NCBI GenBank assembly: GCA_000708835.1
Contig: DF237253.1
Location: forward strand, 1 to 64,000
From: Klebsormidium nitens
Taxonomy: Eukaryota; Plantae; Klebsormidiophyceae
DNA length: 64,000 nt
Direction: 5' to 3'
Shown piece after piece: positions 1-64,000 of the stretch (its first letter is position 1; each line of letters starts with the position of its first letter). Made by a program: the position numbers and the translations under genes. The notes under the pieces are model-generated. The model did not search any database. It had not been told where the DNA came from and worked only from the letters and a program-made list of their open reading frames with translations.

Positions 1-2
1 GT

Positions 3-1696
3 AGGATCTGTCCTTACGGAGAGGAACATACGAGCAACAGTTTCAGCATCATCTGCAACGGGATCTGCATGGAATACCGCTGCCTGTCAACAGGATGCAA
101 AGAGAGACCAAGAGTTCTTCTCGGGCTGCACCATTGGCCTTCGCTTTTGATTTCCAAAGCACGTTTTGATCTGCGCCCTATCGAGGAAGCGGAGAGAATC
201 ATATCAAGCAGCAAAAGCAATGTCGACAAAGTGCAATATCAAAGCATGTGCCAACAACTCACACAGACTGCTATCGACACGATGAACCACTACTTCTGCG
301 TTCTAGACGGCAGCTCAAAAGTGCTCTTTATCGAGACCCTTTTCGTTGAAAGAGGCACTGCATGGGTACCAAATGACAGCATCCTTCGAACAAGAGCTGA
401 GTTCCTCGAACGGTCCGAATCATTCAATCTGGACAGCCTGAAGATTGGCAATCTTGGAAATCTGTGGTGCAAGTCATCAGCGAGAAGGACGCTCAACAAG
501 GTAGTCTTCGAAGCAAACTCTCGTCTGGTTTCGCCTAACAATTACAATCTGTTCTACGGCTTTCCCTTCGCTTACGAAGCGGATCAGCCTGTTGACATGA
601 AACAAATCGATCTTCTCTTGAAGCATATCAACGAGGTATTGGCAGACAATGATCCTGCTGTAGCGGAAGTTACCTTCTAAACTGGTTAGCTCACCTTGTT
701 CAGAGACCGTATAAGAAAATTGGTACTGCACTTGTGTTCAGGTCTGACCAGGGCGCAGGCAAATCGATCGTGACAGATTTTGTGGGGAAATATGTCATCG
801 GATCTCGATACTATCTGTACTGTAACGATATGGAGAAGGTGATAGGCAAATTCAACGGAATAGCTGCAAATCTCCTTTTGGTTTGCTTCGATGAAGTAAG
901 CAGTTGGGGTGGGGCCTACAAAAGTAATAACAGGTTGAAAAGCCTCATCACTCAAGATACAACAATCCTAGAGAAGAAGGGGATCGATCCCCTTAAGGTA
1001 CCCGATCTTGCTACCTACTGGTTTAACACTAACGAAGACTGGCCGATCGAAAAAGAGGCAACCGACCGGCGCTACGCATGCTTTGAGGCCTCCGACTCTA
1101 GATTCGGAGATCAACCCTACTTTGATTGGCTTTGTGAAAGCCTCACTAGCACTACAGCTGAACACTTCTACCGGTACTTGATGTCAAGAGAAGGCATCGA
1201 CACTTGGAACCCCAAGCAGATCCCAAAAAGCAAGTGGAGCTCTGCTCTCAGGGAGCACTCGATTCCATTCTGGGCAAAGATGATATGCGGGTTGCTGGAC
1301 AACGGCAACTTTTCATCAGATTCGAAGACGAAGGTGCTAAGCGCCACCATCTTCCGAACTTATAGGTCCTTCGTAGACAATCAAGGTGCAAAAGAAGATC
1401 CGCCGCAACAGAAAGACGTTTTGATTGGTCGGATCAAACGAACACTTGGACTGGATGGTTACAAAGATGTCAGTGGTCGCGGCTTGATCTTTCCAACGAG
1501 AAGTGAGCTGGAGAAACGGCTGCAAGAAATTCGTTTGAGAGTCGACGAAGTGCATTGGGACGGATCATGGGCTACTGAGCCAACTTTACTAGTCTCATCG
1601 ACTCGATATCTGACAACTTCGACTCTGTACTTATCACTTTCGCTCGTAAGTAATCATCGCTGTCCCCCAGTCGTGCAACAGAGTCCTTTCAGCTAA
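3..1696 (+). CDS. Viral/MGE-type zinc-finger + SF3 (D5/DUF5906-like) helicase; 5'-truncated by the window; one frameshift near 670
   Basis: The frame of ORF 69-680 is open back to nt 3 and reads RICPYGEEHTSNSFSII...YRCLSTGC (C-H-C-C zinc finger). At ~671 the other frame gives YLLNWLAHLVQRPYKKIGTALVFRSDQGAGKS (Walker A), continuing into ORF 734-1696 with Walker B (VCFDEV) and motif C (FNTNE). No introns are needed. Confidence 0.85.
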
Positions 1697-2710
1697 CTGC
1701 TTCCTCTCAACAATCGAACGATCGTTTTTGAAGTGTTCGCTAATGTAAAGGTGCCTCAAATGATTTTGGTTCAATCGCTTTCCGTTTGGAAATGTAGTTG
1801 AGGAGATGAATTTGGTCAAGTGGTTGTCGGACATAGCTTGTTTCGTATCTCCAAGCCGCGATAACAAAGAACCCCTGGGAACCAACTCAATCGATCGTCT
1901 GATGTAGTTGTTGAGACGTTGTGAAAGCTCAAACTCTTTTTTACCGTGCTTTTTTGATGTCTTATAAGTTTTAAGCACAAGTGAAAAATCACCACTTGTG
2001 CTTTCTCGGAGACAATTGCCTGTGTCCTTGTACGTCTTTTCGGCTTCACCGCAGAAGAAGGTTCCGTCTGCTCTACGAAGAGGAAGTCCGCTGAGATCTC
2101 TTCGCTTTGGTGGTTCATGGATGTTCATCGCAAGCAACAAGTGCTGGAAGACGCACTTAACCTCGTCTCTGCTGAGACTTGGACCGTTGTCTTTCGAGTT
2201 TGGCATTATATGCCTCCGAATGTGTCTGTTCAGCTTTTCCGCTCTGCTTTTGAGCTCGGTCATGCTTATCCAGTTGGCAACCTCCTTCTCGGTAGCCTTT
2301 TGCTCATCGGCCTTCTTCATCTGGACCACTTTCTTGACGGAGAAGCTCTCGAAGTATTTCTCATAGGTGCCTTCCCATCCCTTTTTGTGAGCAATGACCA
2401 TTAACGGGGTTACCTTATTTTTGAAAGTTCCGGGGTTGGGGTATTTTTGGTCGAGCTTTTCGATGATAATAGATGCATCCTTCATCCAATCTAACGTGGA
2501 AGGCAAAACGTTTTCGCCTGTGACTAAATGATAAATCACTCGCACACTGTTTAGGTACTGCAAAATCGTGATTTCAGCCCTCTTTCCGTCTTGAAACAGG
2601 TTGCGCAAAGCAGCCTCACCTGATGCAATTGTCCGCAGACTTTCGTTAGCCCCTCCTTTGTCAGATGTGGATTCTGTACTCGATTGAACGGATGCTTCCA
2701 AATCCATCAA
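1634..2710 (-). CDS. Tyrosine recombinase/integrase, of the type seen in Polinton-like viruses, virophages and NCLDV
   Basis: 358-aa intronless ORF with ordered catalytic-like motifs: PPKRRD (Arg), TYKTSKKHG (Lys), NHLRHLYIS (H/N-x-x-R) and LLHDWGTAMITY (His ... Tyr) at the C-terminus. Confidence 0.8.
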   Translation of the reverse strand: MMDLEASVQSSTESTSDKGGANESLRTIASGEAALRNLFQDGKRAEITILQYLNSVRVIYHLVTGENVLPSTLDWMKDASIIIEKLDQKYPNPGTFKNKVTPLMVIAHKKGWEGTYEKYFESFSVKKVVQMKKADEQKATEKEVANWISMTELKSRAEKLNRHIRRHIMPNSKDNGPSLSRDEVKCVFQHLLLAMNIHEPPKRRDLSGLPLRRADGTFFCGEAEKTYKDTGNCLRESTSGDFSLVLKTYKTSKKHGKKEFELSQRLNNYIRRSIELVPRGSLLSRLGDTKQAMSDNHLTKFISSTTFPNGKRLNQNHLRHLYISEHFKNDRSIVERKQLAERTLLHDWGTAMITYERK

Positions 2711-2744
2711 TTGGCAACCCTATATCATACATCATCTATAATAA

Positions 2745-3143
2745 TTCTGGAATCGAAACGGGCACCTCTTTAAGATGCGTCCCCTAGGAAATTCTGCTTC
2801 AGAACCCTCGGCTGGCCGGGATCAATGGCCCAGAATTCCAACCTTGGCTGCTGAAGTTTGGGCAGGACGATGGCTGCTTGGTCAACAAAGTTACCACTTT
2901 GTTTGGATTCTAGAATCCAAAAGCCTCAGGTAGGAACGCAGTTTGCTAAGATGCACCACCGTTTCAATTCTAGAATCAGATACGTGATATTTGATCTTCA
3001 GCTGTAATCCCAGAATTGAGAATATGAAGTGACAAAATATTTCAACACGCGGTCAATTCTAGCAAAAGCTCCCAACTTTTTGTGCATTTGGGGTCCCACA
3101 ATTGACTGTTAATTTCGCGAAATCGGGACTCCCCCTTCTAGAA
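2745..3143. promoter_or_regulatory. Cluster of TTCnnGAA dyads (heat-shock-element-like or protein-binding palindromes) in the divergent intergenic region
   Basis: TTCTGGAA at 2745-2752; TTCTAGAA at 2908-2915 (inside the perfect 20-bp palindrome TTTGGATTCTAGAATCCAAA, 2902-2921), 2968-2975 and 3136-3143. Confidence 0.4.
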
Positions 3144-3307
3144 TAGTGACTGGGATCGTTCATCTTTTCAGAGTGCTTCATGCAGCGGACACTTCGATGA
3201 GAGAGGGGCGATCTCTTATAATCGGCTGTCAACAATTTTGCCAGGTCCACGAGACGACCAAAATGCTTCAGGGGGGCAACCTCGGAGGTTGGGCAGCATG
3301 ATGCACT

Positions 3308-3931
3308 TTGCAGGGTTTTTATCTGATCTTACTTTCATACAGCTGGTCCATGGATATTGCATGCTTGAAACGAAGCTTTAAGGTGCTGCTTGCACTCGAC
3401 CATAATCAATCAGATGCTTCGAGCCTCCTTGAAGACACTCGTCTAGAAATTGACGCTGAACGAGGACGCGTTTCGCAAGCAGGCACACGCGCTGGCAGCC
3501 ACCTTTTCAGAGCACTCAAATGTAACGGTGCAGCTAAAGCACCATGCACTGTCTATGTACTGCTGAGGGAAACGACTAGAGGTTCAGCGAACAAGGAATT
3601 CGGATATCAAGTGAAGATCTCCCCGGTGAAGGAGTCCGACAGACCGCTCGGGCTTCCTTTCCAAGGTACTTTCTCATCCTCAGCAACCAAGATACCGGTC
3701 GAAGAGCTTGTTGAGATGCATGCGGAAGCATCGAAGGCGAAAAAGAAGCAAGAGAACACCAAGAAAAGCAAAGCCTCGACTCTGAGTAAGGTTGCAAAGA
3801 AGAATCCCAAGCAGAAGTCAAAGGCAAAACAATCAACCTCTACAGGCACTTCAAAGGCCACTAGAAAGGCTCGGGGAAGCAAGGCAATAACGTTCAAATG
3901 CGTTGCGGTCGACAGCGACTCTGAAGATTGA
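3308..3931 (+). CDS. Orphan protein with Lys/Ser-rich basic C-terminus (true start possibly the internal ATG of MDIACL)
   Basis: 207-aa intronless ORF, packed 15 nt from the next ORF. No recognisable family. Confidence 0.5.
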   Translation: MQGFYLILLSYSWSMDIACLKRSFKVLLALDHNQSDASSLLEDTRLEIDAERGRVSQAGTRAGSHLFRALKCNGAAKAPCTVYVLLRETTRGSANKEFGYQVKISPVKESDRPLGLPFQGTFSSSATKIPVEELVEMHAEASKAKKKQENTKKSKASTLSKVAKKNPKQKSKAKQSTSTGTSKATRKARGSKAITFKCVAVDSDSED

Positions 3932-3946
3932 GAGACGAGGCCTAAC

Positions 3947-4330
3947 ATGCTAGATTTTCTTTCCTCTCTGATACAAAAAAGAATGGAGAGAGGTTATACG
4001 TACTACGTGCCAAAGCAGCCACGAGGGTTATATAGCTTGCTTCCGTTCATTGACGAGATCGAAGCTCTCGGACCCTTCCGCTACGAAGGCAAAGTAGATA
4101 AAGGCCTCAGAAGTCCACTGGACATGGGTTTACTACGGCAAGGCGTTCTGCTTTTGCTTCACCAACTTTGTAACGAAGACCTCGTCGTGTCAGAGGATGA
4201 CGTCAAGGCCATAATCGAAGCGGGTGTTACGTACGGGGAATGTGCAGGGTATTCCGAGAAGGAGGGAGAGCTTCTATTGTCAATCGCAAAGGGGATACTC
4301 AAGGCCTGCAAGGCTGCCGAAGACAGCTAG
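3947..4330 (+). CDS. Orphan small protein (127 aa)
   Basis: ATG-initiated intronless ORF with globular-looking composition, followed by an A-run at ~4349-4361. Confidence 0.5.
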   Translation: MLDFLSSLIQKRMERGYTYYVPKQPRGLYSLLPFIDEIEALGPFRYEGKVDKGLRSPLDMGLLRQGVLLLLHQLCNEDLVVSEDDVKAIIEAGVTYGECAGYSEKEGELLLSIAKGILKACKAAEDS

Positions 4331-4431
4331 CTTTGCGTTGGTTTGTTGGAAAAAAAAAAAACAATGAACAATATTACAGAACTTTAACGAGATGGAGACC
4401 GGCGGCATAGAGTCTAACCATCACGCGTCTT

Positions 4432-4848
4432 GTGCCTTGTACTCTTTGCGGAAAGAAGCACCGTATCATTCAAAACGCGCTCTTTCCAAACGACTCGGAA
4501 ATTACTCTATCGTCAGAGGGCGTGCCTTGGTGCAAATTGCTCCAATTGAAGAGGCAAAATCGCTATAGACGTGACAAACAGTGTGTGCTCAAGAACAAGA
4601 AGGTCTGGTATCAGAAACATAAGCAAGCTATCTTGCTACAATCGGCTGCCGAGCGTCTAAGAAATGGAAGGACTCGGAGACCTCATCCAAAGACCATCTC
4701 GAAGTTAAAGGAAGCAGGCGTCGAGTTTGATTCTAACAATAGGATTCTTTGCGTAAAGACCGCCACCTCAAATCCAACGGCAGCCATTGACAAGTTCAAA
4801 GCTTCGAACCTCAGCGAAGCTCAAGCTTCTACAACTGAAATGGAATAA
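4432..4848 (+). CDS. Orphan basic protein with CxxC (CTLCGKKH) and KKVWYQKHKQ segment
   Basis: 138-aa ORF whose start codon is non-ATG in the ORF track. Basic, possibly nucleic-acid binding; family not identified. Confidence 0.4.
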   Translation: MPCTLCGKKHRIIQNALFPNDSEITLSSEGVPWCKLLQLKRQNRYRRDKQCVLKNKKVWYQKHKQAILLQSAAERLRNGRTRRPHPKTISKLKEAGVEFDSNNRILCVKTATSNPTAAIDKFKASNLSEAQASTTEME

Positions 4849-5084
4849 GCTCGTTAATGATCATTTTGCCGGAAGAAGTTGCCAAGAGCTCGGACAGTAA
4901 GGACACTGCCATCTCGGTTGTCTATCAATGCAAACCTTTGCATAGGATTTGAGCTCATAGACAGTATGGACAGCAAGGACATATCGTTTCAGACCGTGGG
5001 ACACATAATTCTTATTGTCGGCATGCACGTTTGCTTATTCATAACAAAGTCAAGCGTAGAGGACTCTTGTCCATCAATGCACAC

Positions 5085-8000
5085 CTAACTTGGTTCGTAA
5101 CTGCTTTCAATGCCTACAAACACTTGTGGCCTTTTATCTAAGTGGTCATGGGATTCGAGTTTTTTCTTTGCAAAGCCCTTCTTGTTCATCCTAGCAGCCA
5201 AGCTTTCGACGCTGATTGTAAGCTCTCCTGACGCTGCTCTATAATCTTTGAGAAACGCCGCTGCGTTCCCCCGAAGCTGTGGATTGATTCTACACTGCTC
5301 GTCGATGAACTGCTGCAGCTTGTCGTTCTGTGCAAGATACGTATCCAAGTTTGCCTGGACAGAGGGCGGGACAGCTCCGATCGACTCCCCTTGCGCATAG
5401 AACTTCACCGCCCCTCTCACCAACCACGAGAGAAACTGCTCGAGCGTCTCGTTTTCCTGCATTCTCGCCTTCAAGCCTTCGTCCACAGGCCGGTGCCGAG
5501 GGTTGGTCGGCTCAAATCTGGTCCGGCTCACGTAGAGGTTGAGGAAGTCGAAGATAAGCAACCGACGGAGCATAGCCGGTTCGGTGACGTCCCGGAGTTT
5601 CGGGGGGTGGTTGGTCAGCAAGATTGGGAGGTTCATGAGCGGAAAAGTCTCCGTCTGGCCGTATGGTGCGCGCGCAGAGACATTCCCTCCCCCCGTGGTT
5701 CCTTTAACCGAGCCCGTATCGACCTCTGCCTCCTCATTGTTCTCATCAAGGATGCTGAAGCGAAGCCCTTTCAAGGCATGCATGTGGGGAGTGGGAGCGC
5801 CTTTGGACGCCGGTCTCTGCCCCGCCGTTCTCACCACCACGTCCGTGGACATGACCCCGCAGTAGGGTCCTAAAGCTTTCTCCAACATCTCCTTGGTCAC
5901 GCCCTTCCCATTCCCTGCACAAAAAGCAAAAAAGATCAAGGTATCAGATTCCGATTCAAAAGCAACCAAACTAGAAATTAGAACCAATCGGTGTTCTTGT
6001 ACCGGGGCCCAGGCTCATGATTTTCTAAGAGATTAGGGCCGTGTTCAAGTTGTCCGACTGACTAGAATTGTGACCTTGAAAGCTCTCAAAAAGTTCTTCT
6101 TGTCCTTTACCAGATGCGGACTTACCGCCCAATCCGATCCAGAAGACCATGATCTCGCAAGCCTTAGACCCCGTCATGCCGTAGCCGAGCACAATCTGGA
6201 GGGTCCGGATGACCTCCTCCTCTCCGTTGAACACATCGTTGAAAAAGTCTTCGATCCGAGGGGAGGGAAGCTCGAGCCCCTGCACCAGAATTACAAGCGT
6301 AGCATCATGAGCTCGACGATGTGATGAAAGCTACACCGCAACTTAAAAGCGAACAATGAACAGCCCAATACTTTAGATTCAGAGTTGCGAGCAAATCTCA
6401 CTGTGTTCAATGGAAGGCTGCCTAAGAAACAACCTTTGACACGGAAAGCAACAAAGTGAGCAGTGAAAACTTACGCTATAAATCGTCTCTGCAAGCTTCG
6501 TGCACATGTATTGTGGGCGGTGGATGTCGAGCTGGCCAGTGCGCAAGTCGATCACTCCGTTGCTCACGTTGAGGATGTCAGGATTGCGGTCGAGCTCGTT
6601 AAGAAACGTGCTCGAGAACAACTCTCCCTTCACAACCTTCAACGTGTCCTCCGCGGTACGCCTGTTATTGTAGTCACGAAGCAGCTTGAGCTTCGCCTCG
6701 ACTATTTCTAGCTTGGCCTTGTCATCTTTGGGGATTTTCCTCTCTTCCTCTCGCAGCTCGCGCCTGACACGGTCGATGATCGTGCTCAGCTGGTGCATGA
6801 GGATGTACAGCACTTGAACGTCATGAGCCCGCTCGTACACCTTCCCGGTCCACATGTAGAAGCCCGCCGGAGTGTACACAGTCCTGAAAAAGAGGGCGTG
6901 AACGATAGCTTCAATTCAGTGGTGTTTTTACAGATTTTGAACGGTCATGTCCGAGATGTCCGACCTGAATCACGACTTTCTCAAAAGCTCCGGCCAACCA
7001 GCCCATGTCCGACATGTCCGACCTGAATCAGGACTTTCTCAAAAGCTTCCAAACGGTCGTGTCCGAGATGTCCGGCCCAAATCAAGACTTTTTCGAAAGC
7101 TCCCAAACGGCTGTGTCCAATCCAGACTATGCCGTGAATCTGTGCTTACCTCTTGCAGGCCGAATACATTTGCGAAAAGATCCGGCTCCCACCCCTGTCC
7201 CCCTGCAGCGCCCAATAGTCCACGAACTCCTTCGTGACACACCCGAGCACGGCTTCATCTCCATCAGCATCCACTGGTCGCACAGAGCCACGTGCTTCTT
7301 CCCCGACACCGTTCAAGTCGCCGATCTGCCTCCGTGGCATGATGGACTGGCACTCGGACGAATTGCAGTGGTAATAGAGACTGCTGCCCTTCACCAGGAT
7401 TGAAAAGTTGTTGGAACCCAGGTGGTGATGACCGTAGGGGCATGTCCGCTCTCCTTGAACCCGGAAGACGTACAGGTTGCCCTTTCGCTTGTCGAAGCGC
7501 GAAACACTGTCGCCGCATTCTGAAAGACAGCTTTTGATGCGCTGCAGCACGGCGATGTCGGGCTCTTCGCCAAAAACCCCCACGACGGGGGCAGGCAGAT
7601 CGAGGGAGGCCCGCCTTTGGCTTGTTGCTGCGGCGGTCCTGCACGAGTACCGATGTATCGATGGTCAAACAAGCACGTAATCAAGTACGGCAAAAGCACT
7701 TGGCCATCCAGGACCCTGAAAAAAGTCTCAGTTTCGATCGGACATCTTGAACATGACTAGAAAGCCTCGATCTTGGGACATAACTGCTTCTAGTGCGGTC
7801 GAAGCTATCAAAAATGCGATCTCAAATTTTCATGGCACAGCTTCAGTTGCGCTTCATCCCCTGCAAAAAGACGCGAACGTTGCGTCCTGACTGCAAGCAT
7901 GGATCAACCGGCCTGATCTGAAGTTGGACCAGACAGAGCACTTAATCACACCGGTGCTGCTCGAACTTCGGGCTGTGGATGATCAGGATCAGCCTAGGCT

Positions 8001-9166
8001 GCTTGGCATCAAATGCCCCAGACGTACCCGGTTCTTGAACGGCCCCCATTGGCGGTGCCCCCCGCGCCCGGTTGGTCCTCATTCAGGATGGCAATCAGCC
8101 AATCCGGACTTGCCATGAGATTAGAGCGGTCGGGGAGGATCTCGTGATCCCACTCGTAGCGCCGGAGCTCGCCGTCAAGGCCCCGGTAGCTGCTGGGTGC
8201 CGTGTACAGCATCCCCCCTCTGCCGCGAATGTCGATGCCCACCTTTTCTCCTTTGTACCGAATCCGGGTCCGGTTGCTGCCGTTCCGCAGACGGGCCTCC
8301 TCGGACTTGGACAGGGAGAAGAGGACGTGCATGCCCTTGTTCCCCGTCGTCAGGCGGGGCGTGTCCTCCGGGAAGTTGTCGTGCTCCTCGAGCATCTGCT
8401 GTAGCGCCTCAAAGCCCCCATCTTTCACGTCGACGTCTACTGCGAATAGGTCGGATTCCTCCGTGATGATGGCGATGGAGTTCCGCCCGGGCATCGCAAA
8501 CTCCTCGCTCAGGCAATTGTCGTGGTTGGCCTGGCTCCAGAACCCCAAACCCTTTGCGAACCTCCTGACTTCGCCAGTTTTATTGCGCCCCTCCTCAAGG
8601 TCGAAGGTGATGGTCACGACTCCCAACGAGTGAAATTGATGTGCGGCGGCGAGGATGGGGTCCAACCAGGGCGCGGTATCCTGCGAGGGAAAAAAGGCCC
8701 ACGAGACGATATCAGCATGTTGCAGAAGGAGAATGTTAGGACACTTGCTGATCTTGTGGAAAGCTTGCGGCTGACAGCGCCCGTTTAAGTGGGGCCCTTT
8801 CGTTAGACCATCCCGAGTAGCATCATAAAACTCTCTTGTCCAAGCTGTCCAACCTTTTTTGATATTTTCTTGGGACACGGATTGGCTGCGGTGCTGACGT
8901 CATCAGATTGGCTCTCAAAAGCCCGCGCAAAAGCTTGGACATCTCGGACATGATGGCCGTTCAGGACCTTTGAAAAGGTCTGGATTCGGGTCGGACATCT
9001 CGGACATGGCCTGGTTCTGAGTTTGAAACGATCTGCTCAATCTACCCACTAGCAGTCAAAGAGTGCAAGTCTGCTTACAAAGGTTTCTTCCACTTACGGA
9101 AGGGTTTGAAGTTGAAGGAGGAGAATCCGTCTGAGCTCCATCATTCGATTGCGCGTGCGGGGCCAT
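5085..9166 (-). CDS. Spliced bifunctional primase-polymerase (Prim-Pol) + zinc finger + D5_N + SF3 helicase, ~867 aa, 6 exons
   Basis: Exons 9166-9098, 8680-8028, 7638-7150, 6883-6475, 6279-6126 and 5914-5085 total 2604 nt. All introns are GT..AG and all phases are compatible. Motifs: AVDVDVK, TTGNKGMH and GIDIRG (AEP); CPYGHHHLGSNNF..YHCNSSEC; NGVIDLRTG (D5_N); Walker A WIGLG|GNGKG restored across intron 5; ILDE (Walker B); LLTNHPP. Exon 1 is the least certain. Confidence 0.88.
6947..7112. repeat. ~53-58-bp tandem repeat (three copies) in intron 3 of the primase-helicase gene
   Basis: TGTCCGAGATGTCCGACC-GAATCA-GACTTTCTCAAAAGCT repeated three times; reverse complement of the unit at 9301-9390. 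Confidence 0.85.
8935..9012. repeat. Same 53-bp repeat family (~1.5 copies) in intron 1; one more copy at ~7710-7760 in intron 2
   Basis: GGACATCTCGGACATG occurs twice, flanked by TTGAAAAGGTCTGGATTCGGGTC. Confidence 0.8.
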
Positions 9167-9300
9167 GTGAGGCTGCATACAAGAAGGAATCGGCCTTCAA
9201 TTACAGGCTCGCATAAAGCGCCCCTCTAAAACTTGTGTTCATTCCAACTGAGACTCAGAGCATCAAGAGGTGAACCTTCTGTTCTGCTGTCGTTGGGAGC

Positions 9301-9392
9301 CTTTGAGAAAATCTTGATTTTGGTCGGACATCTCGGACATGGCCGTTTGGAGCCTTTGAGAAAGTCTTGATTTTGGTCGGACATCTCGGATA
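9301..9392. repeat. 53-bp tandem repeat (~1.7 copies) upstream of the primase-helicase start
   Basis: CTTTGAGAAA at 9301 and 9354 (period 53), with core GGTCGGACATCTCGGA. Confidence 0.85.
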
Positions 9393-10426
9393 CAAGACAG
9401 TCTTGAAAACTGTGTACAGCTCAAACGGCTCACCGCATCTGAAAGGAGAGGTAGCGCGGGCACCAGCGCTTCCGAGGACGAGATTGCTGGACTTGAGTTG
9501 TCTTTCAGACCTTCAGAAAGGAAGTCGACTTTCAGGCGCTTGGCGTGGCGTCGAAAGGGGCCGGGTGATAGCGACATTTCGCCGACCTCTTGGCTAAGAT
9601 GCATCATGCTGTCAGCCTCGTCTTGGGGGAAGTGACGCGGCGAGTCTTCCTGGTCGCTGCCGACTGAGGATCTTTCGTCGCCCTCTCGTTCACTGGATCT
9701 GGGTGCCGGTCCAGACAACATCTGATCACAAACGTGAAGGATAGCAGCTTTCAGAAGGTGCAATTATGTTTCCACAACAAGCAGCTTGGGGGTTCTCACG
9801 AGAAGTCAAAGTCTGCACCCTCCATTGAGCGCAGCGCTCACAGCGTTTCTAGCTGTCCTTAACAAGAAATCCTTGATAACGAGCCAGTTTGCTCAAGGAT
9901 CTGCCGCGCATCTGCTGAGCATAAGGAATAGATGCCTGTCCACTGGTCCTGGTCTGGTTGGAGCTGAGTCTAAGTATTCTCCCAACGATCAGCCATCTGG
10001 ATCTGCACCCTCCAAGAAGCGCCCCGCTCACCTTGTATGAGCTTTCTGGCCCTCTGAGCAACTTCTGCGTTCTAAAACCCTTGACGGAGAACAGGCCACG
10101 AACAGGCGATCAACTGAAGCATCTGCCGGCGCTGCGCAGGCTGGAGAGATATGCGCTGTGCCAGCAGCTTGATGGAGAGGCAGTCAGCTCAAGATGATCT
10201 GCCGGTGCTGCGCAGCTTTGGAGAGGTGCGCTGTGCCCTGCTGGCACGGCACTTCAATCAGCAGCTGTCCGAAATGAGACCATGGTGTAGAGCAGCTGGT
10301 GTTGGCAGAGGAAAAAGAGGGAAGAGGATGCTTGCAAGAAGGTTGAGGAGAAGCTAAGAAAGAAAGCGTTGGGGAACTGTTTGTATATATGGAGGGGGGC
10401 AAGTCCCCTTTTTATAGATTGCCTGA

Positions 10427-10470
10427 GCATATTGCCTGGCATATTGCATATTGCATATTGCATATTGCCT
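10427..10470. repeat. (ATATTGC)n short tandem repeat
   Basis: Four perfect copies at 10441-10468 plus a flanking partial copy. Confidence 0.85.
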
Positions 10471-10704
10471 GGCCGAAAATTTGCGATTCGAGGCGGACAA
10501 GCTGGACATCAACAGTATCAGGCTCAGCTCAGACAGCAGCTGAGACTGTGGTGGTTGTTGCAGTTACACGATTCCGACAGTGCCGTTTCCGGAGCCGAGC
10601 TCTCTCTCTAAAGAGAAACCTGACTCAGACGTTTGAGCGAGCTCCAGCTGGCAGCTTAGGCGGTTGAGCGAATCCAAATTGCCGGTGATCCGCTCTCTCT
10701 GAAT

Positions 10705-11570
10705 GGAAAAATCTGACTCAAACACTTGAGCGAGCTCCACCTGGAAGCTCGCTGAGGCGGTTGAGCGATTCCGAAGTGCCTCAGCTCAGCCGGTTGACCG
10801 TTTCCGAAGTGCCTCAGCTCAGGCGGTTGAGCGATTCCGAAGGGGCCGAGCCTCCTCTGAACGTCTCAGGCTTAGGGTTAGGGTTCGCAATGAAGCAATC
10901 CAGAGTCAGTCCGGTGGCATGATACGTACGGTTGGAATGTCAGAAAGCCAATCGCGGTCAAAACCACGTCAAAAAACCCAAGTTATTTTCCACAAAACCG
11001 TTTCATCGGAAACGCGGTTTACCGATTGAACTTTTTCAACCACCGCCACTGGTCGTTCCGGCCGATCGCGGGGCCATGCGGGAGGGGGGACACGTGCCCT
11101 GCGGTGATGAGCGTTTTTGCCACCGATCAGTTGGCATAAAAAGGCAACTGAGATCAAAATCTGACTAAAGACACTTGAGCGAGCTCCAGCTCAGCTCAGG
11201 CAGTTGAGCGATTCCGAAGTGACGGTTCCGGGGCCGAGCCCCTCTCTGAAACCTCTTAGGCGTAGGGTTAGGGTTCGCAATGGAGCAGTCAGGTCGGTGG
11301 CATGGTACGTACAGTTGGAATGTCAGAAAGCCGATCGCGTTCAAAACCGCGTCAAGAAGCCGACTAACCAAGTGATTGTTTGTCTGTTGGTGCCCCCCAA
11401 GAAACCCAGGATCTTTCCACAAAACCGTTTCACCGGAAAAGCGGTTTACCGAGCGAACTTTCTCGACCACCCCGCTGGTCATTCCGGCCGATCGCGGGGC
11501 TGTGCGTGAGGGGGGACACGTGGCGCCCTGAGATTGGCGCTTTTTATGCCAACGCTCGGTTGGGGACATG
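10705..11570. repeat. ~440-bp imperfect tandem duplication, each copy containing TAGGGTTAGGG and GAGCGATTCCGAAGTG sub-repeats
   Basis: ~10705-11145 aligns by eye with ~11155-11570 (shared AATCTGACT, CACTTGAGCGAGCTCCA, GTTGGAATGTCAGAAAGCC, TTCCACAAAACCGTTTCA, TTCCGGCCGATCGCGGGG). Confidence 0.8.
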
Positions 11571-11859
11571 CGCTTGGTCCCTTTGATGGCGCGCGGCATG
11601 GCGGCCAACGATTCGCACAACCATCCTATACTCTTGAAGCTTTGAAACCAACGCAGATTTTCAACGCTGAGATGTTCTTGCCAATGAACTATATGTGAAA
11701 AGCGCATGCATGATATAGCAGCTGACAATTTGCCAGTCCATATTGACGTCTTTATTTCCATCTCTTGCAACATTGCACGCGTTGTCAACCTGCACCGACA
11801 AGCTATAATTTCAAGCCAGTACGTGCAGACTCATGGTTTCACTCCCACTGTTAGATCAG

Positions 11860-12030
11860 TGCGCGAGAAATTGTCGGGCATGGGGCCAACAGTCTGCACC
11901 ACCATATGCTGCACAAAAACGCTCTTAAGCAATGCAAATTGACGGCGCTTTGTCCCATCTCTTACGTTATCATGCGGAAAGTGTGCGGCATGGGACCGTC
12001 AATTTGCACCGTCAATATGCACCCTGATGC
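11860..12030. repeat. Degenerate ~110-bp satellite, left part
   Basis: GAAA(G)TGT..GGCATGGG(A/G)CC recurs at ~11865 and ~11977, with CCGTCAATTTGCAC and TCCCATCTCTTAC sub-motifs. Confidence 0.6.
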
Positions 12031-12099
12031 TATAGTTTTTTTTAAAATGTTTTAACGTCGGTTCGGAGCCGTGGTCGGCTTAGTCGACGATCAATCTAC

Positions 12100-15000
12100 T
12101 CAAGCCTGCACTAAGCTTGATCTTATTGCAAAGCTTAAGTGCAGAAACTTCCCTACCATATACTTATCTTGCAAATTGAGGAACGAACTTAACTTCTGTT
12201 CTCCTCTATCCTCAAAGATGGAACGGAAAGAACTCCTAACACTATTGTATGCTGGGCACTCAAATACAAAATGACTTTCGTCCTCTACCGCGCCTGTTGC
12301 ACATATCGTACAAAACCTTTCGGTCCGCGGCTTTCTTTGCCAAGCTCCCGTTTCAATAGCCAACTTATGAGCCCCTACCCTAAAGCTGGCAAGCGTGGAT
12401 AGAAACGGAGCATGCTCAATCTGGTCAAGTAGGTCTCAAATGTGTATCCCTGCTTCACATCACTAAAGTACGTGCAATACTTACGCCCATGCTCTTCCCT
12501 CAGATCTTGCATGTACGCAAACTCGGACAATGTTCTAAGCGACCTGACGTCAAACTTCCCAGCAAAGCTTCCATCACAAACTAGTTCTTGGGCCTTTTCG
12601 ACAATATCAGCAAACCACCCTTTCTCACCAGCGGCCCACATGACCTTGGACTCCTCCAGCGCTAGCCGCGCCAGTCTGTCTTCCGAAAGGCCTAAAGTCC
12701 GGTTGACGAACTTGAAGATTTGCTCCCCGGGCCCACCTGCGAACGACCACAGGGAAACGGCCGAATTCGCCGAGAACAGCCTTCGAAAGAGTCGTCCTCT
12801 TGACCCTCAGGAGCCCCCGTAAGAACGCCCTATGGACTTTCTCTGCAGAATCACCGTCCCCATTCCACCCCCACTCTGGGCCGTACCCCGGACCCCACAC
12901 TTCCGCCCCGTACTCAAGGATCGGTTCCACTAATACGTCGAACAACCGAACTCGAGTGCTCAGCTTTCTCACCCCCAGCTCCGTACACCTCCGTTCTAGA
13001 GCAAAGGCTGCCTTTCGCCCGGCCGCCGCCAAAGCCTGAGCCCCCTCCCGAAAGCTCCCGTTACAATGGAATTGCACTCCCAGATACCGATAACTCGGCA
13101 CTATTGCGACGCGCTCCCCCGCATACCGAAACTCGTTCTTCTCTTTCTGAACAGCGACTTGACCTCCGAAAACTACAACCTCCGTCTTTTGAAGATTAAC
13201 CAGAAGCCCACTCCTTTCGCTGAAACCCTGCAATAGGTCCAGCTTCCTTTGCAGACCCGCAGCGCTCGTTGACAGCAGAACGACATCGTCTGCAAAGGCA
13301 AGGAACGGGACTTCGACGCCCTGCAGTGTTGGACTGTCCGCTGCCCTGCACATCACGGCCTCTAACCCGTCTATATACAATCCAAACAGCAAAGGACTTA
13401 GCGGACACCCCTGTTTCACCCTGCGGTTGCTCTCGAAAGTTTCAGCGGAAGTCCACCTGTCTCCCCTCATGCGGCAGCGCACGTTAGCATACATGCTCTG
13501 CACGCTCCGAAGCATCCGCCCCTTGACCCCAAGCTCCTCTAGGCGCTTCCACAACTTTTCACGTGGAACCATATCGAACGCTTTCTTGAAGTCGACAAAG
13601 CAGGCGAAAAGGTGCCGGCTCCTACCTCGCGCCCAACGCTCGATCAGAACCCGAAGCGCCAGCATGTGGTCCGCCCCCCGGAACCCCTTTCGGAACCCCG
13701 CTTGTCCCCGCGCTCGGACCAGCCCCTTTTCCGCCCACTCGCTTAGCCTCCTGTTTAACACACTGGCGTACAACTTGCCTAAGACAGGCCCCACCGTCAC
13801 CGTCCTATAGTTTCCGTAGTCTGTTGGGTCACCCTTTTTGAAGATTGCCACAAGAGCCCCCTCATTCCAACTTTCCGGAAACACCCCCTCTTCCAACACC
13901 CGGTTGAAGACTCCCGTCAGTGCCTTGAGAAGGTGTTCCTCCCCCGCTTTCAAGAGCTCAGCCGTAAAGCCCCCCAAGTCTGGACTCTTCCCGTTCTTCA
14001 GAGCTCTTAGCGCCACTTTCACTTCGCCCTCCGTGATTGCTGCTTCCAAGCTGTCTGGCCTTACAAGACTTTGCCGCTCTCGCTCCTGCTCCGGCTCCGG
14101 CTGAACTTTGGACCCAGAAAGGAACGATCCCGACTGCTCATACAGAGACTTGCAGTGTTTTAGCAGCCCAGCTTCATGCTCTGGCCCTAAACCTTTTGCT
14201 TTTCTCCTGAACCGCTTCCAAAAGGTTGCGGGACTGTTCTGCATCTGATCCTCCAGCTTGGCCGCTCTGTATTTGTCGAATGTCCGTTTCTTTCGCCTAA
14301 CCAGTCTCCTGTACTCTTTTTTAAGCTGGCTACTTAAGTGAGACGGGCCATCCGTCTTCAGGGCTGCTAAAAATTGCTTGCGAGCATCCTTACAGTTTCC
14401 ATCAAACCAAAAAGTGCTACGGTTTACAAACTGCTTTCTTGATGCTGCCGAAGGGAAAGCGCACTGACCAGCACTTCTAACGGCTTCTTCTAGAACATCA
14501 GCTGCTTCTCCAGACCCCATCGCCTTCAAGTTCTTGGTCAGGAATTGCAACTCGACTGACTGAGCTAGCATTGCATTGAAGACAGGGATCCCCTCAGACC
14601 TTACCCTTGGCACTGGAATCTGATCAGCCTTTGGGACCTCTATAGCAGGCATCTTCTCGGGGAAGTGCTGCGCACCCACCCTCAAGGATAGCGTCACCAC
14701 CCTATGATCTGAGTCAGGCACTTCATCTGAGACAACTAAAGTGTCCGCTCGCTTGGCTAAAGAAGCGGAAGTAACAAAGACGTCAACCAAGCTGCTTCCG
14801 CCCCCAGCCGGGAAGCATGTGCCCCTGCCTGCTTCGTCGCCTCTAACTCTGCCATTGAGAATCCTGCAGTCCGCTGACTTGCAAAACTCAAGTAGCAACT
14901 TCCCTGCACCGTTGACCACTTTGTCGCTAGACGCTCTTGGCGCGATGAACTCTGGCTCCCCCCAGCTCTCTGCGTCAGGAACGTCAGCAAGGAACTCAAT

Positions 15001-15531
15001 GTCCCTTGTGTCCAGCCAGTCACACAAGGAGCTAGTACGCGCGTTCAAATCTCCAGCTAGCACAACTTCCCCAACAGACATTGCTGCCGCTGCTTCCTGG
15101 GTCAATTGCTCAAAAATTGCTTCTAAGGAGGTTCCAGCTTGTTTATACCAAGTTGAGGTCTCTGGAGGCAGATAAGCCAGACACAAGAAAAGATCCTGCC
15201 CTGCTGAGCCTAGGCTTGGGAATCTAAGCCACATGTGGCTTTCTGAGCCTGCCCTCCATTGTGACACGCCTAAGCTTGCTAATTCCTTTGACATCCAGAT
15301 GGCTAATCCACCCGCACCGCGCCAAGCAGCTTGATGTTTAAAACTACGCGGCTGCTCAAAAGAAAAGAATCCTTCCAAACATTCTAGCGTCTCTTCGGGC
15401 TTGGCCCAAGTTTCCGTGAGCAGAACAATGTCCACTCCAGAACCAACAAAATCTGTTATTGATTCCCACTTTTCATGCCTCCATCCCTGACAATTCCATA
15501 ATGCAAAGGTCAAATTAACCCTTCTGTTCAC
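12100..15531 (-). CDS. LINE ORF2: APE endonuclease + reverse transcriptase + C-terminal CCHC; two 1-nt frameshifts (~12728 and ~12403)
   Basis: APE motifs WNCQG, LTETW, GDLNAR and SDH; RT motifs GQAGFR, FVDFKKAFD, QGCPLSP, FADD and YLG; CTICATGAVEDESHFVFEC in the last frame. Shifting frame restores WAREQIFKFVNR and LASFRVGAHKLAIETG. Confidence 0.92.
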
Positions 15532-15561
15532 ACTACCCCTCCCACCACGGCCCCCGTGCCC

Positions 15562-16338
15562 CTAGCATTTTGTTGAGGTGGGAGCAACCTGACTGGCTGC
15601 CACCACCAAAGAGCCATTGATGAACAACCTTCCTCCAACAATGCGCGCATGCTTCTTTTCTGCTCTAGCCTCCTTCATAAGCTTGACTTGATGGAAGTGC
15701 TCTGCCAGCTGCCTTGGCGTCCGATCCTCATCCACTCCCACAGCCAGTCCCTTCAGGGTGGGTTTTGCCACCAAGATCTGCCGCCGACCTTGCTCTGAAA
15801 CAGTTTTCACCAGGATCGCTCGTGGGCGCTCACCCTGCTTTTTCTGCCCGATCCTAGTGGCTGACTCAACCAGATTCGCAGCATTCTTTACCCTCATGCG
15901 ATCACTGAACAAAGCCACAATCTTGTCTTTGATGCTAGAAGGGTTTTCGTCAGCAGACTCTTCCAACCCTGTTACACGAATGGAGCAAGCCCTCGCCTTC
16001 CTCTCCACGGTCTCCCAGACCTGTTCATCCACCACTTTGGACACGGTTCGCTTGACTTCCTCGGCTACATTGGCAGCCTTCAGTGCAGTCTCCTCACTTG
16101 GAAACACCTTTTTCTTCACCATGCTTCCGAAGTCCTCCACTGACTTGCCTAGAGAAGCGGCATCTTTTCGCAACCTCCCTATCGCCTCATTGGCTTCATT
16201 CAATTGCAGTTTCAGCGCCGCAATCTCATCTTGCTGCGAGTCAAGCCGTTTTTCAAACCCCAAGCGCATCTCCACCAAGGCTGTCTCAAGGCTTTCTAAG
16301 GTGGTCACTTTCCCGGCAGCCATGGCTGCATAGGACAT
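15562..16338 (-). CDS. LINE ORF1 (coiled coil + RRM-like nucleic-acid-binding protein)
   Basis: 258-aa ATG ORF: coiled-coil N-half, then SIRVTGLEE...RIG...RPRAILVK...VDEDRT, typical of L1-type ORF1. Confidence 0.85.
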   Translation of the reverse strand: MSYAAMAAGKVTTLESLETALVEMRLGFEKRLDSQQDEIAALKLQLNEANEAIGRLRKDAASLGKSVEDFGSMVKKKVFPSEETALKAANVAEEVKRTVSKVVDEQVWETVERKARACSIRVTGLEESADENPSSIKDKIVALFSDRMRVKNAANLVESATRIGQKKQGERPRAILVKTVSEQGRRQILVAKPTLKGLAVGVDEDRTPRQLAEHFHQVKLMKEARAEKKHARIVGGRLFINGSLVVAASQVAPTSTKC

Positions 16339-16469
16339 CCTGTCAGCCTTCTGGATGCGCCCCTACCGGCATGAGTGTGCCACAAGTGAAATATATGAAG
16401 GAGCTTTCAAGCAATGAAGATTGACGACTTCACACAATCCTTACAACATCGCTCGAAAAAATCTGACGT

Positions 16470-17035
16470 CCCCAAGAAAGTATCGGGTTGGCATGGGAGC
16501 TGACAAATTGCATCTCTGCACTATGCGGTGAAGCTTTTACAAAGGTGCAGAGCGACGTCGTTGGTCCATCTCAAACAACCTTGCTTGAGAAAGTGTTTGG
16601 CATGAGGGTTGATGGTTTGCAACACCTTGCTCTACAAAAAGCCTCCAATATGATGCGGTTTGAACTTTGTTACAGTGTCGCTCGGAAAAGTATTCAGCAT
16701 TGGCCCGTCAATCTGCACTACCTTAAAAGCTTCCTTGTATCGCTCGACGGTGCAGATTGACGGCTCCGCAACATGGACTGCAGCATTGCTCGGAAAAGCG
16801 GCGGCATAGCCGGCCGTCAATTTTGCACTCAAGCTTCACTAAGAGCTTCAGAGCCAATGCAGATTGAACGCTTTTGTCCATCTTGCGCAAATAAGTGTCC
16901 AGCACGAGGCACCACCTCGATTTGCACCACCGTGCTACACAAAACAGCGTTCAAACCAGTGCACATCTCCACCTTCGTCCCATCTCTTACAACAATACTC
17001 AAGAAAGTGTTTGGCATGGGCCCAGGTGCACCCCG
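16470..17035. repeat. Degenerate ~100-113-bp satellite, right part (5-6 units)
   Basis: GAAAGT..TTGGCATG-like anchors at ~16476, 16589, 16685, 16792 and 17003; shares CCGTCAATTTTGCAC and TCCCATCTCTTAC with 11860-12030. Confidence 0.6.
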
Positions 17036-17114
17036 TTATTGCTCTGAGTATTGGTTCGAGTCATACTTGACTCGAAACTCAAGTCGCTGCGACCAGAAGC
17101 AAAGAGAAGGCCCC

Positions 17115-20100
17115 CTAGATGATGTAGCTCGGACGCGAGCGGACTTCTGCTGCCCTCGCCACACCCTGCTCGAGGTTAGACAAGTACTCCATCATTACTT
17201 CAAAAGGTGGCAGGTTGAACAGGGGCTGCTCCCGGCGTACCTCTCTGTATGTGCATTCTCGAAGATCGCTGACTACAGGACCGTGGCTCTGAGGGGAATC
17301 GAGCGGGTTCCGGGAGGGGGATGATGGTTGGGGGGCAGGGAATCTTGGAGGGCGGTTGTCGAGCGCCGCGAGGAGTTCTGTCACTGCAGCCGGAGGAAGA
17401 AGATCTTAATTTGAAACTCACAACACGAGGGACGAGAGCTAAGCAGCCAGTTCCTCTTATTGAACATCTCAACTCTGACCGACTTCCAGGACTTTTCAAA
17501 ACCCAAAGGGGGGGGGATCTAAGAGCACTATCCTTCTGTCGTGAATGCAGGGACGCAAGTCCCATAAAAACGCTTCACTCACATGTTTGCGGCATACCAC
17601 TACCAAAATCAGGACGTAAACCATTACTTGGATTGAATCTAGTGAACAAGATAGTATCGACAGAGACAATCTACATGTCTTCCAGTGTTCATAAAAGACA
17701 TATGGAAAGAAGCCAGCACCTGTCTTGGTTGACAAAACCCTTCCGAGCACCACAGCAGCAAACGAGAAGCTCGAGATAGACTTCGTTTGAGATGACATTA
17801 TGATAATAACTTGCCTTTCTTTCTTCGAACAACCTCTGCCTGGCTGCACACCTTCCCGAAATACTGGAACGCCGCGGCCTGGTTGCTGAATACGACTTCC
17901 TGCACGAAACCCCCCCCCTCTTCCTGGACGCCGTGGAAGACATGCGAGTCCCCCACCAGGTTGGTCAACAGGACCGGAAACCCGACCCCACTGCGGCCTG
18001 AAAGCAGCGTACATCCCACAAATTGCCCAAGCGCTTGGCCACGGAACGCATCATGGAATTCCCTCCAGGCTCTCTCGGTCTTGGTGTCCACAATCCCAGC
18101 GATCTACAAAAGGACAGGAAGAGCACAGCAAGGGTGAGCAGGTTGCAGAATCTCATGAACTTTGACAGGTCTCATTAGAATCGTTCATCAGACAAGTGCT
18201 TTTTACGTTCCTGCGTTTGAAAACGGAGAAGGCTATGCGTTATCACTAGGATTTGAAGATGGGAAGAAAAGAGAATCTCAGAACAACCAGATACACAAAC
18301 CCCAGAGTGTGCCGCTATCCGTAATCTGTCACGGGCCTCACCTGTGCAAGGTACGGGCCTCACCTGTGCAAGGTAATTCCGTGGATGCAGCTTTGCCAGC
18401 TCAGCAAACTCGGTCATGACCACCGCAAGATCGGTTTTAGTATCCCTCAGCTTCATCCTCTTTGTGGGGGTGGCATCTGATCGGCTGAAGATTTGCCTCT
18501 GGCCTATGTCCACGACGGTGAAGCCTCCCATGTGAGCAGCGAGGGCAGCCCGCACATACTCCTCCGCTCTGATCATGTTTGAGGTGTCGTCCTCTCGAGC
18601 GTCTGCCAGAACAAGAAAGGAGGAGACGGAAACTCTTAATTCTCCAATGAGCATCAGAACAACTGCCTAACAACTGATGAATACATCAATGGCAGTGTTT
18701 GCAGGGAGGAGCCTCCATCCCCAAATTCCTCTGGTTTGGCCCGACATGCAACTCGGAGTGGCCTCTTTGAAAGATCAAGCAGATCAGGAGCTCAGGCCAA
18801 CATACCTACTTAATGTTTACTGAACTTAAAAAACATGGAAAGAAGCAGAAGCTGCTTGCCTTTCCGCTCAAACCTTGCGCCGCTGTCTGCATCTGCAATG
18901 CCTGTGTCGTCTGCTACACCGATGATCGTCTCCAATTTCTCAAACCCCATCCGGACGAGGGCCTCTCTTGCATCCGATAAGTCCATCTTGGAGCCGCCAA
19001 CCGATATCTCGTCCGCAAAAGCCAGAGACGTCTCCTTCTGTATGGCGCGTCGTAGAAATGCTACAAAGAAACATGCAGTATTCTCACCAAAATGCCAGTC
19101 TCTAATTCTTCACCTGACAGGACCTTGAAGGGTGGTTCCTCAAAGCATGCAGCTGGTATATCATACACAGCTGGTCCATTACACCAAGCAGTAAGTCATT
19201 TCTGTTGCAACGGGAACCTTCTCCAATCTTGCAGTGATGTGTCTGCAAAAGCTGAAACCAGTGTGTTTTTCAACCCTCACCTAGAAGTTCTTCTGGAAGC
19301 TGCAGTTGCGGTGCAGGCTGAGGTGCATCTGCAACAAGAGGAAGAAGATTTGGATTTTCTATGAGCTGTGGAATCCTCTGGATAAGATTTCATTCAATGG
19401 CTAGATACATACGGCGATCAAAGCTCTTCGTGGGCGAACTACAGATTGCGAATTCCCGTGGATTATTTTTACTGCTTTCAACCCAGAGGATGCAACAGTT
19501 GACTTCCTGAGGTTTAACTTCCTCATAGTACGCTTGAGCATCCTCTTGCCCCAAGTAGAGGCTGCCTTGGGTGCAACGACCAGACATCTTCCGTACCACC
19601 CAGCTCAGGGAGGAGATGAGGGCATTCTGGGCAGACAGGTAAATCAACACAGGAAGGTAAAGGGACATACTCCAGAAACAGGCACCAACGCACTGGAGGG
19701 ATGATGTGAATTACTGCATCAACCGTGAACCCCGGCACTCTGCCAGATTGCAAGCATGCATGATTGCTATTGCATAGGTGTTGAGTTTGTGAGAGCTTCC
19801 TTCCCAAAGCAAACCTGTCAGGCTAAGAAGCAGAGGCACTTGCAAAAACCCTGCCCTCACCCTTCAAATTGAAGCAACGCTTTGCCTGACGAATGGCACA
19901 ACCTTAGAAGCAGAGGGAGCTACTCCAAACAGGCACCGGAGTGGTGTGCCGTGGATCACCACAACCACCATGTGCAGCAACAAAGACTTCCAGAGAAGAG
20001 ATACAATAGCAACATGGGGGGAACGGTGCAGGAAAGCATGTGACTCACCAGTTCCTGTGGTGCTCGGACTAGCAGCCGCTGCACAAGGCCAAAAGTTTTT

Positions 20101-63491: not shown

Positions 63492-64000
63492 GTAAGGGAA
63501 GAAAGAGTAAACATGTTTATCCTGAGTTCGTTGTTTTGGCGAAAGGTGCCAGTCAATCCAGAAAAAGCTACATAAAGCTGGAAAGGTCTCCAGAATTGCA
63601 GAAGTCCGCACGTGCTGCAGCAATTTTGTGCATAGAGCTTTGATTCTGTCAGCACTTTATGTTGTTTCAACTGCAACGTCAGTCATCTGCTCGTCAAAAT
63701 CAGCAACTGCTGATAACAATTGAAACTCTAGAAGGCGTCCAATGAAGGGTAATAAGTGGAAGCGGGCGAGGATTACTTAAACCTGAACATCTCGATCCCC
63801 AGTTTGTAGATCTGTGAAACTCTAAAAGGCGTCCAATGAAGGGCAATATGTGGGAGCTGGTGCCGATTCCTAAAAGCCTGCAACGAGTCACCCGAATTCA
63901 TCTGGCCTTGCCGACTAGCTGTACCTGCTGGACATACGTATTTCCGCTCTTAAGAAATTACAAATGCCTCTAGTCAGCCGGCTCCAAAGAGCGGTGATCG

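Follow-up and report, generated by a model that had tools for sequence, protein, structure and literature searches.

The stretch of DNA described here (the window) comprises 64,000 nucleotides (nt) of Klebsormidium nitens, positions 1 to 64,000 of contig DF237253.1 in assembly GCA_000708835.1. Its minus strand carries, between positions 9721 and 5085, a primase-helicase gene of the Prim-Pol/D5 type. The seven-exon model of this gene, its six introns and the multicopy family to which it belongs are the subject of this report.

Gene structure, splicing and the intronic repeat

The original prediction, made from the letters of the window, placed six minus-strand exons at 9166-9098, 8680-8028, 7638-7150, 6883-6475, 6279-6126 and 5914-5085. 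Rejoined, they give 2604 nt coding for 867 amino acids (aa) and a stop, with zero internal stops. The introns between them, numbered 1 to 5, are 417, 389, 266, 195 and 211 nt long, and each runs from GT to CAG, with four GTAAG donors and one GTACG donor, that of intron 2; lengths (195-417 nt), donors and acceptors had been described correctly for all five. Retention of any one of them would bring 3-8 in-frame stops, and the G+C content is 55-62% in exons versus 42-50% in introns. Phase would be kept by chance at all five fixed junctions with a probability of 0.4%, which is the lesser support because junction sites can be chosen; collinearity with homologues and RNA-type contigs are stronger. 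The 867-aa model is collinear with K. nitens protein P0001 across aa 216-865 (72% identity) and with the single open reading frame (ORF) protein P0098 across aa 88-842 (38% identity). Chance joining of ORFs as the origin of the frame was ruled out by the homologue collinearity and the RNA-type contigs.

The predicted start at ATG 9166 had to be revised. It lies inside an internal exon of 75 nt (9098-9172), of which the first exon of the original prediction is the part 9166-9098, as seen from an RNA-type joint (9433 to 9173), the N-terminus of P0003 and the open seven-exon frame. Upstream lies a coding exon 0 of 96 codons (9434-9721), starting at ATG 9721 and encoding an acidic low-complexity N-terminus; residues 15-96 of P0003 match 9679-9434 at 89%, RNA-type contigs join 9436-9679 to 9172, and the frame is open. 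Intron 0 (9173-9433; 261 nt, GTGAG to CAG, phase 0) separates the two exons. The complete model, with seven exons and six introns, is open over 965 aa. An AG directly before ATG 9721 suggests further 5' exons, and a candidate splice donor lies near 10031. About 700 nt upstream of ATG 9721, on the minus strand at 10409-10468, a TATAAAAA box follows 4.3 copies of a 7-nt unit and is a possible promoter.

The domain order in the 867-aa frame, whose numbering is used throughout, is Prim-Pol, zinc domain, D5_N and superfamily-3 helicase. By sequence the protein belongs to the Prim-Pol/D5 primase-helicases, with the DxD, H and D motifs of the AEP domain and, next to D5_N, a superfamily-3 helicase in which Walker A and B, motif C and an arginine finger are all present. 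Exon 2 (8028-8680) encodes the Prim-Pol domain (Pfam PF09250, E=6e-16) with D105, D107, H141 and D173. Exon 3 (7150-7638) encodes a linker and a Cys/His domain (C307, C332, C337) that is predicted from the alignment to bind zinc and is without a Pfam match. Exon 4 (6475-6883) holds D5_N (Pfam PF08706, E=2e-15). The helicase domain starts in exon 5 (6126-6279), placed by the exon model and homologue alignment, which extends up to Walker A, and exon 6 (5085-5914) encodes the helicase core (K595, D648-E649, N693, R708-R709) and the stop (PHROG 1156, E=1e-28); the match to PHROG 1156 spans all three domains. All of these AEP, zinc-cysteine and helicase residues are kept. Walker A (GLGGNGKG, aa 589-596) is itself split, its second glycine being cut by the phase-1 intron 5, as originally noted. 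Of 88 conserved columns in a 19-sequence alignment, 4 are not matched by the window copy, one being at R153, where 16/16 of the others have G.

Splicing was assessed with contigs from four public runs, aligned on 4900-10000 only. The RNA nature of three of them (X1, X2 and X6, from three studies and under two organism labels) is a guess, and no RNA-type contig is at least 99% identical to the window, so that the contigs report close copies and not the window allele. Six RNA-guess runs share words with the gene, only 7-14% of the words each. Intron 5 (5915-6125) is removed exactly in 3/3 RNA-type runs, and intron 4 (6280-6474, phase 0) likewise in all three, exactly in X2 and as net 195-nt skips in X1 and X6. 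Introns 3 (6884-7149, phase 2) and 2 (7639-8027, phase 2) are each removed in 2/3 runs, X1 and X6, and the joint across intron 2 is exact; part of intron 2 is retained in one X2 contig. Intron 0 is removed in two of the three (X1 and X2; joint 9173/9436, with one letter between). Intron 1 (8681-9097, phase 0) is a prediction whose acceptor also occurs in the P0003 model; no joint across it was found in the four runs aligned. One contig of 2741 nt spans exons 2-6, another runs beyond 8680 into other sequence, and transcript contigs end at 4999-5017, past the stop. In the fourth run, of a kind that was not recorded, the introns are kept. The GT-AG introns 0 and 2-5 are thus probably spliced out of transcripts of close copies, and the proposed check on spliced junctions came out well for introns 2-5 and gave no joint for intron 1. 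One X2 contig is frameshifted (+2 at 5783, -5 at 5715), at the point where P0003 terminates, yet it is spliced; splicing alone therefore shows neither a working protein nor domestication. A group I or group II identity was ruled out for all introns by their GT-AG ends and the absence of an Rfam match in 1-17000.

About eight copies of a 53-nt repeat, in both orientations, lie at 6940-7118, 7705-7757, 8933-9011 and 9291-9395, all of them within introns 0-3. Intron 0 holds two copies and intron 2 one diverged copy, further copies lie in intron 1, and intron 3 consists mostly of 3.2 tandem copies of 53-54 nt in reverse orientation. A 20-nt core of the repeat has, with up to 3 mismatches, 8 matches versus 0.01 expected and none elsewhere in the 64 kb. 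Contigs of related copies appear to hold the repeat as well (opposite-strand joints), while the core has no exact match in IMG/VR. Because the repeat matches no Rfam family and its folding is no better than that of shuffled versions (z from -1.2 to +1.2), we reject a role as hairpin or ribozyme. Its possible identities include a minisatellite of the host and a site specific to the element.

Gene family, intron age and relatives

The gene belongs to a family with at least 12 annotated members in K. nitens (P0001, P0003, P0015-P0021, P0023, P0066 and P0068), 40-84% identical to the model, on 11 scaffolds; 7/12 are on scaffolds shorter than 25 kb. NCBI already labels these models, GAQ79182, GAQ92546, GAQ92004 and nine more, as phage/plasmid primase-like. 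A transcript cluster of K. subtile also falls into the family, and no named eukaryote other than Klebsormidium is among the matches listed. Only P0068 is complete with every motif; the other 11/12 are incomplete as annotated. P0001 is annotated without the primase, and P0003, which of the K. nitens copies is closest to that of the window, breaks off ahead of Walker B. Next to the full-length window copy, the two models nearest to it each miss a part, GAQ79182 the primase and GAQ92546 the helicase core. Several copies have long, disordered, eukaryote-like N-termini. Extensions of 470-520 aa were seen in P0068 and P0018, with a cysteine-rich motif in that of P0018, and P0019 has a duplicated exon-5 segment. 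The family contains both young pairs, at 97, 91 and 87% identity, and three old subfamilies that are about 40% identical to one another, a birth-and-death pattern.

Where homologous models, or environmental ORFs of exon size, end or show gaps, the positions coincide with the intron junctions of the window (23 alignments listed, identity at least 39%). Such breakpoints fall at aa 239-241 in six proteins (intron 2), at aa 404-406 in four (intron 3), at aa 537-540 in four (intron 4) and at aa 588-592 in P0015, P0016 (approximately), P0019 and P0135 (intron 5). From this agreement we infer that introns 2-5 are older than the subfamily split and that the copies multiplied as DNA, since retrocopies would have lost the introns; spread by retrocopying was ruled out on the same ground. 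The long nuclear residence proposed earlier is supported by the RNA joints and by breakpoints suggesting that intron sites are common to subfamilies about 40% identical.

For an estimate of the ratio of nonsynonymous to synonymous rates (dN/dS), 40 listed differences between the window and the contigs (392 further ones exist) were first stripped of 6 that lie in the 3' untranslated region and of 12 contributed by a distant paralogue. The remaining 22 comprise 9 silent and 13 residue-changing differences, against 23% silent sites. The resulting crude dN/dS of about 0.43 (P=0.048, a small biased sample of 22 sites) points weakly to constraint on the window copy. The retention of the catalytic motifs across 60% divergence is the stronger sign of long-term selection on the family.

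A profile search over 1.84 billion representative proteins gave as nearest relatives outside Klebsormidium single-ORF proteins of about 800 aa in Logan, ENA and JGI contigs (P0098 at 38%, P0099 at 34%). The Klebsormidium copies form one clade both in a helicase tree of 77 rows, selected from 188 candidates, and in a full-length tree of 28 rows, with Shimodaira-Hasegawa-like approximate likelihood ratio (SH-aLRT) supports of 99 and 100, respectively. This clade sits within clades of unnamed single-ORF metagenomic proteins (support 94; 98 and 99) and is separate from the named P4-like primases. The sequence trees thus show a single origin of the Klebsormidium copies among unspliced environmental proteins. 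ESM Atlas neighbours of P0098 are mostly viral Prim-Pol/D5 clusters, and the helicase half matches African swine fever virus C962R (E=3e-22), PDB entry 7ola (1.5e-13) and vaccinia D5 (2e-10). Loci of close relatives were found neither in JGI metagenome contigs or IMG/VR nor in GTDB genomes (a single query, close relatives only).

Nature of the proposed element

The block to the left of the gene, downstream in the sense of transcription (1-5000; 46-48% G+C), carries a second helicase gene at 3-1696 on the plus strand, with a zinc/Cys domain and a superfamily-3 domain of the DUF5906 type (PF19263, E=6e-18). It has a frameshift near 670-680 and is truncated where the window begins, and its Cys domain resembles that of the primase-helicase family. 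At 1634-2719 on the minus strand, 2.4 kb downstream of the primase-helicase gene, lies a tyrosine-recombinase-like ORF of the Polinton-like-virus type (357 aa from its ATG). Its alignment shows the motifs R-K-HxxR-H-Y, which we take to be the tyrosine recombinase pattern. The nearest ESM Atlas clusters (0.98) are viral, most commonly Preplasmiviricota, and relatives in JGI and Logan contigs are 71-79% identical, with a further multi-copy group at 42-47%. Pfam and PDB sequence searches with this ORF gave nothing. Its AlphaFold model is poor (predicted local distance difference test 40), and a Foldseek search with that model gave no match at E<=0.001, a tyrosine recombinase and an integrase taking ranks 2 and 3. 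The recombinase family occurred in none of 80 distant D5/P4-type loci in IMG/VR. The interval separating the recombinase from the primase-helicase gene has three small plus-strand ORFs at 3302-4848 (209, 132 and 145 aa from stop to stop), which are without a Pfam or PHROG match.

We favour, with moderate confidence, the view that the gene serves to replicate a DNA element of viral origin, Polinton-like or related, that resides in the Klebsormidium nucleus. A single entry would have brought an intronless ancestral gene into the nucleus, where it would have acquired at least introns 2-5 ahead of the division into three subfamilies; its later multiplication would have been as DNA, with most copies decaying. 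Proteins of the D5, C962R and P4-alpha type are ATP-driven ring helicases with priming activity and are the model for the predicted function. By analogy, host transcription and splicing would yield a ring-shaped ATP-driven helicase, and the Prim-Pol domain would prime the unwound strand, starting replication of the element. Integration would require a recombinase acting in cis or in trans, for which the Polinton-like tyrosine recombinase 2.4 kb downstream is a candidate. Gene structure, splicing, family size and single origin are observed, and the activity and mobility of the element and its link to the integrase are inferred.

Several results weigh against this interpretation. No capsid or packaging ATPase was found around the gene with Pfam and PHROG among the ORFs scanned, a search that would miss divergent or spliced capsids in a window that begins inside the left block. 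No pair of terminal repeats, inverted or direct, flanks the gene in 1-20000, where the left end could lie outside the window, and no target-site duplication was found around it. None of the 9 matches to the recombinase is a K. nitens protein, and G+C at third codon positions (GC3) is 0.72 in the primase-helicase gene versus 0.49-0.55 in the left block; on both grounds the left block, which we read as a Polinton-like remnant, may be a separate insertion. Assembly or annotation faults on short scaffolds may explain in part why so many K. nitens models are incomplete. Intron sharing was read from protein breakpoints and not from DNA, and the trees come from quick IQ-TREE runs, with no bootstrap. 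In IMG/VR the best match, which covers the helicase half only, is to a 394-kb contig whose locus of 21 kb is AT-rich (25% G+C) and giant-virus-like. The contrast with the neighbouring genes drawn in the prediction is upheld by GC3 and weakened by the neighbouring helicase, which is of another subfamily and frameshifted.

Domestication, which the prediction had offered beside the element, is considered unlikely. The virus-derived primase-helicase would then serve the alga, in repair, re-priming, an organelle or antiviral defence, and the broken copies would be ordinary duplicates. Spliced transcripts of close copies in three studies under two organism labels, the high GC3 with six introns, the intact catalytic residues, the eukaryote-like N-termini and the host-type prefoldin and cyclophilin fragments further right in the window are consistent with such a role. 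The copy number of at least 12 with 11/12 models incomplete, the end of the closest copy before Walker B, a crude dN/dS no lower than about 0.43 and the spliced frameshifted copy fit an element better, as does the restriction of the listed eukaryotic matches to Klebsormidium. In addition, 16 further runs of the same species share nearly no words with the gene (16 of the 24 listed, plus one more), which is no proof of absence. There is likewise a small chance that the gene is a passive relic, an old viral insertion that gained introns, was later copied by segmental duplication or unrelated transposons, and whose protein now replicates nothing. K. flaccidum/nitens has several diverged, rearranged and possibly duplicated giant-virus inserts according to the available parts of PMC5294986, and large duplications are frequent in algal endogenous viruses in those of PMC9693826; element ends were not found in 1-20000, and a long interspersed nuclear element (LINE) lies 2.4 kb upstream. 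A relic is difficult to reconcile with subfamilies about 40% identical that keep every catalytic motif, which needs long purifying selection, and with a window copy still open over 867-965 aa.

It is very improbable that the gene serves latency or replication in an endogenous virus that is intact and still infectious and has its other genes to the left of the window. The Polinton-like recombinase and second helicase lie directly downstream in a block that runs off the window, and a latent punuivirus has spliceosomal introns in 61/506 genes, as far as the accessible text reports (10.64898/2026.10.09.758095). Against such a virus stand the frameshift in the neighbouring helicase and the difference in base composition between gene and left block. 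It would also be unusual for one small virus to have two primase-helicases that are unrelated. A bolder form of the favoured interpretation is quite improbable as a whole: a DNA element in the nuclei of streptophyte algae that has no capsid and replicates itself, with the spliced PrimPol-D5 replicase as its sole core gene and the 53-nt intronic repeats as iteron-like origins, in which a plasmid- or virus-type replicon would have become an intron-rich eukaryotic class of transposon.

Among known systems, fusions of AEP primase and superfamily-3 helicase together with tyrosine recombinases are typical genes of Polinton-like viruses, according to the available parts of PMC4642659 and 10.64898/2026.06.19.733378. 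The Klebsormidium gene resembles these viruses, as far as those sources describe them, in the order primase then helicase, in many copies integrated in algal genomes and in such a recombinase nearby; it differs in its six spliceosomal introns and in that capsid, penton, ATPase and terminal repeats were not found. The main text of 10.64898/2026.06.19.733378 has no mention of 'intron' or 'Klebsormidium'. With poxvirus D5, African swine fever virus C962R and phage P4-alpha the gene shares the helicase-half matches and PHROG 1156 over three domains, but it forms a clade apart from the P4-like proteins, has a Prim-Pol-type primase and a Cys domain, and is spliced, multicopy and nuclear. Virus-type genes with GT-AG introns that are expressed like host genes are described, in the portions at hand, for endogenous giant viruses of chlorophytes (PMC9693826; the punuivirus, 10.64898/2026.10.09.758095) and intron-rich mirusviruses (PMC12768974). 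The Klebsormidium family is like these in its virus-type genes with GT-AG introns. Compared with the same partial descriptions, it differs as a single replicase family of a streptophyte, with intron sites apparently common to deep subfamilies and no giant-virus gene set around; the giant-virus core genes polB, MCP, A32 and VLTF3 were not found among the window ORFs scanned. The main texts of PMC12768974 and 10.64898/2026.10.09.758095 do not mention primase or helicase, and that of PMC9693826 does not mention 'D5 helicase'.

Multiple giant-virus inserts in K. flaccidum have been published (PMC5294986, available parts), and in a flattened version of Table 1 of that paper the D5 cell for this alga seems to be empty. 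Supplementary figures S3 and S5 of the paper may bear on whether copies were noticed before. The published background consulted also includes parts of PMC11244446. No published description of the primase-helicase family or its introns was found in a search that had most subscription papers and bioRxiv supplements outside its reach. Introns in algal endogenous viral genes are often taken as a sign of decay or assimilation, as stated in the discussion of PMC12768974 in its available form. Here a replicase family with intact catalytic residues shows a deep expansion that still continues, and its introns are apparently older than that expansion. This suggests that, in a close algal relative of land plants, a gene family can gain introns and still go on spreading as DNA. 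Viral genes with introns were already known; the interest lies in introns that seemingly predate the spread of the family and in a repeat confined to introns. The public K. nitens genome and RNA runs make element ends, intron conservation and selection computable, and a K. nitens methylome exists according to the accessible part of PMC12344493.

Further features of the window

To the right of the primase-helicase gene, positions 10586-11563 contain nested repeats with tandem units of 33 nt and 93 nt, a duplication of about 380-430 nt and a short TTAGGG-like run in each copy; they could mark an end of the element. The LINE occupies 12100-16362 on the minus strand, with ORF1 and an endonuclease-reverse transcriptase ORF of 978 aa, and is disrupted close to its C-terminal zinc region. 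From about 23 kb onward there are fragments of host type (prefoldin, cyclophilin, F-box leucine-rich repeat). Tandem arrays with units of 159-177 nt and similar lie at 30817-32141, 60932-61973 and 62896-63880; the first holds a donor-like AAAGGTAAGT, which suggests repeated exon-intron units. Very long low-complexity exons at 51915-58057 on the plus strand (open frames of 1338 and 544 aa, without a Pfam match) probably belong to one host gene.

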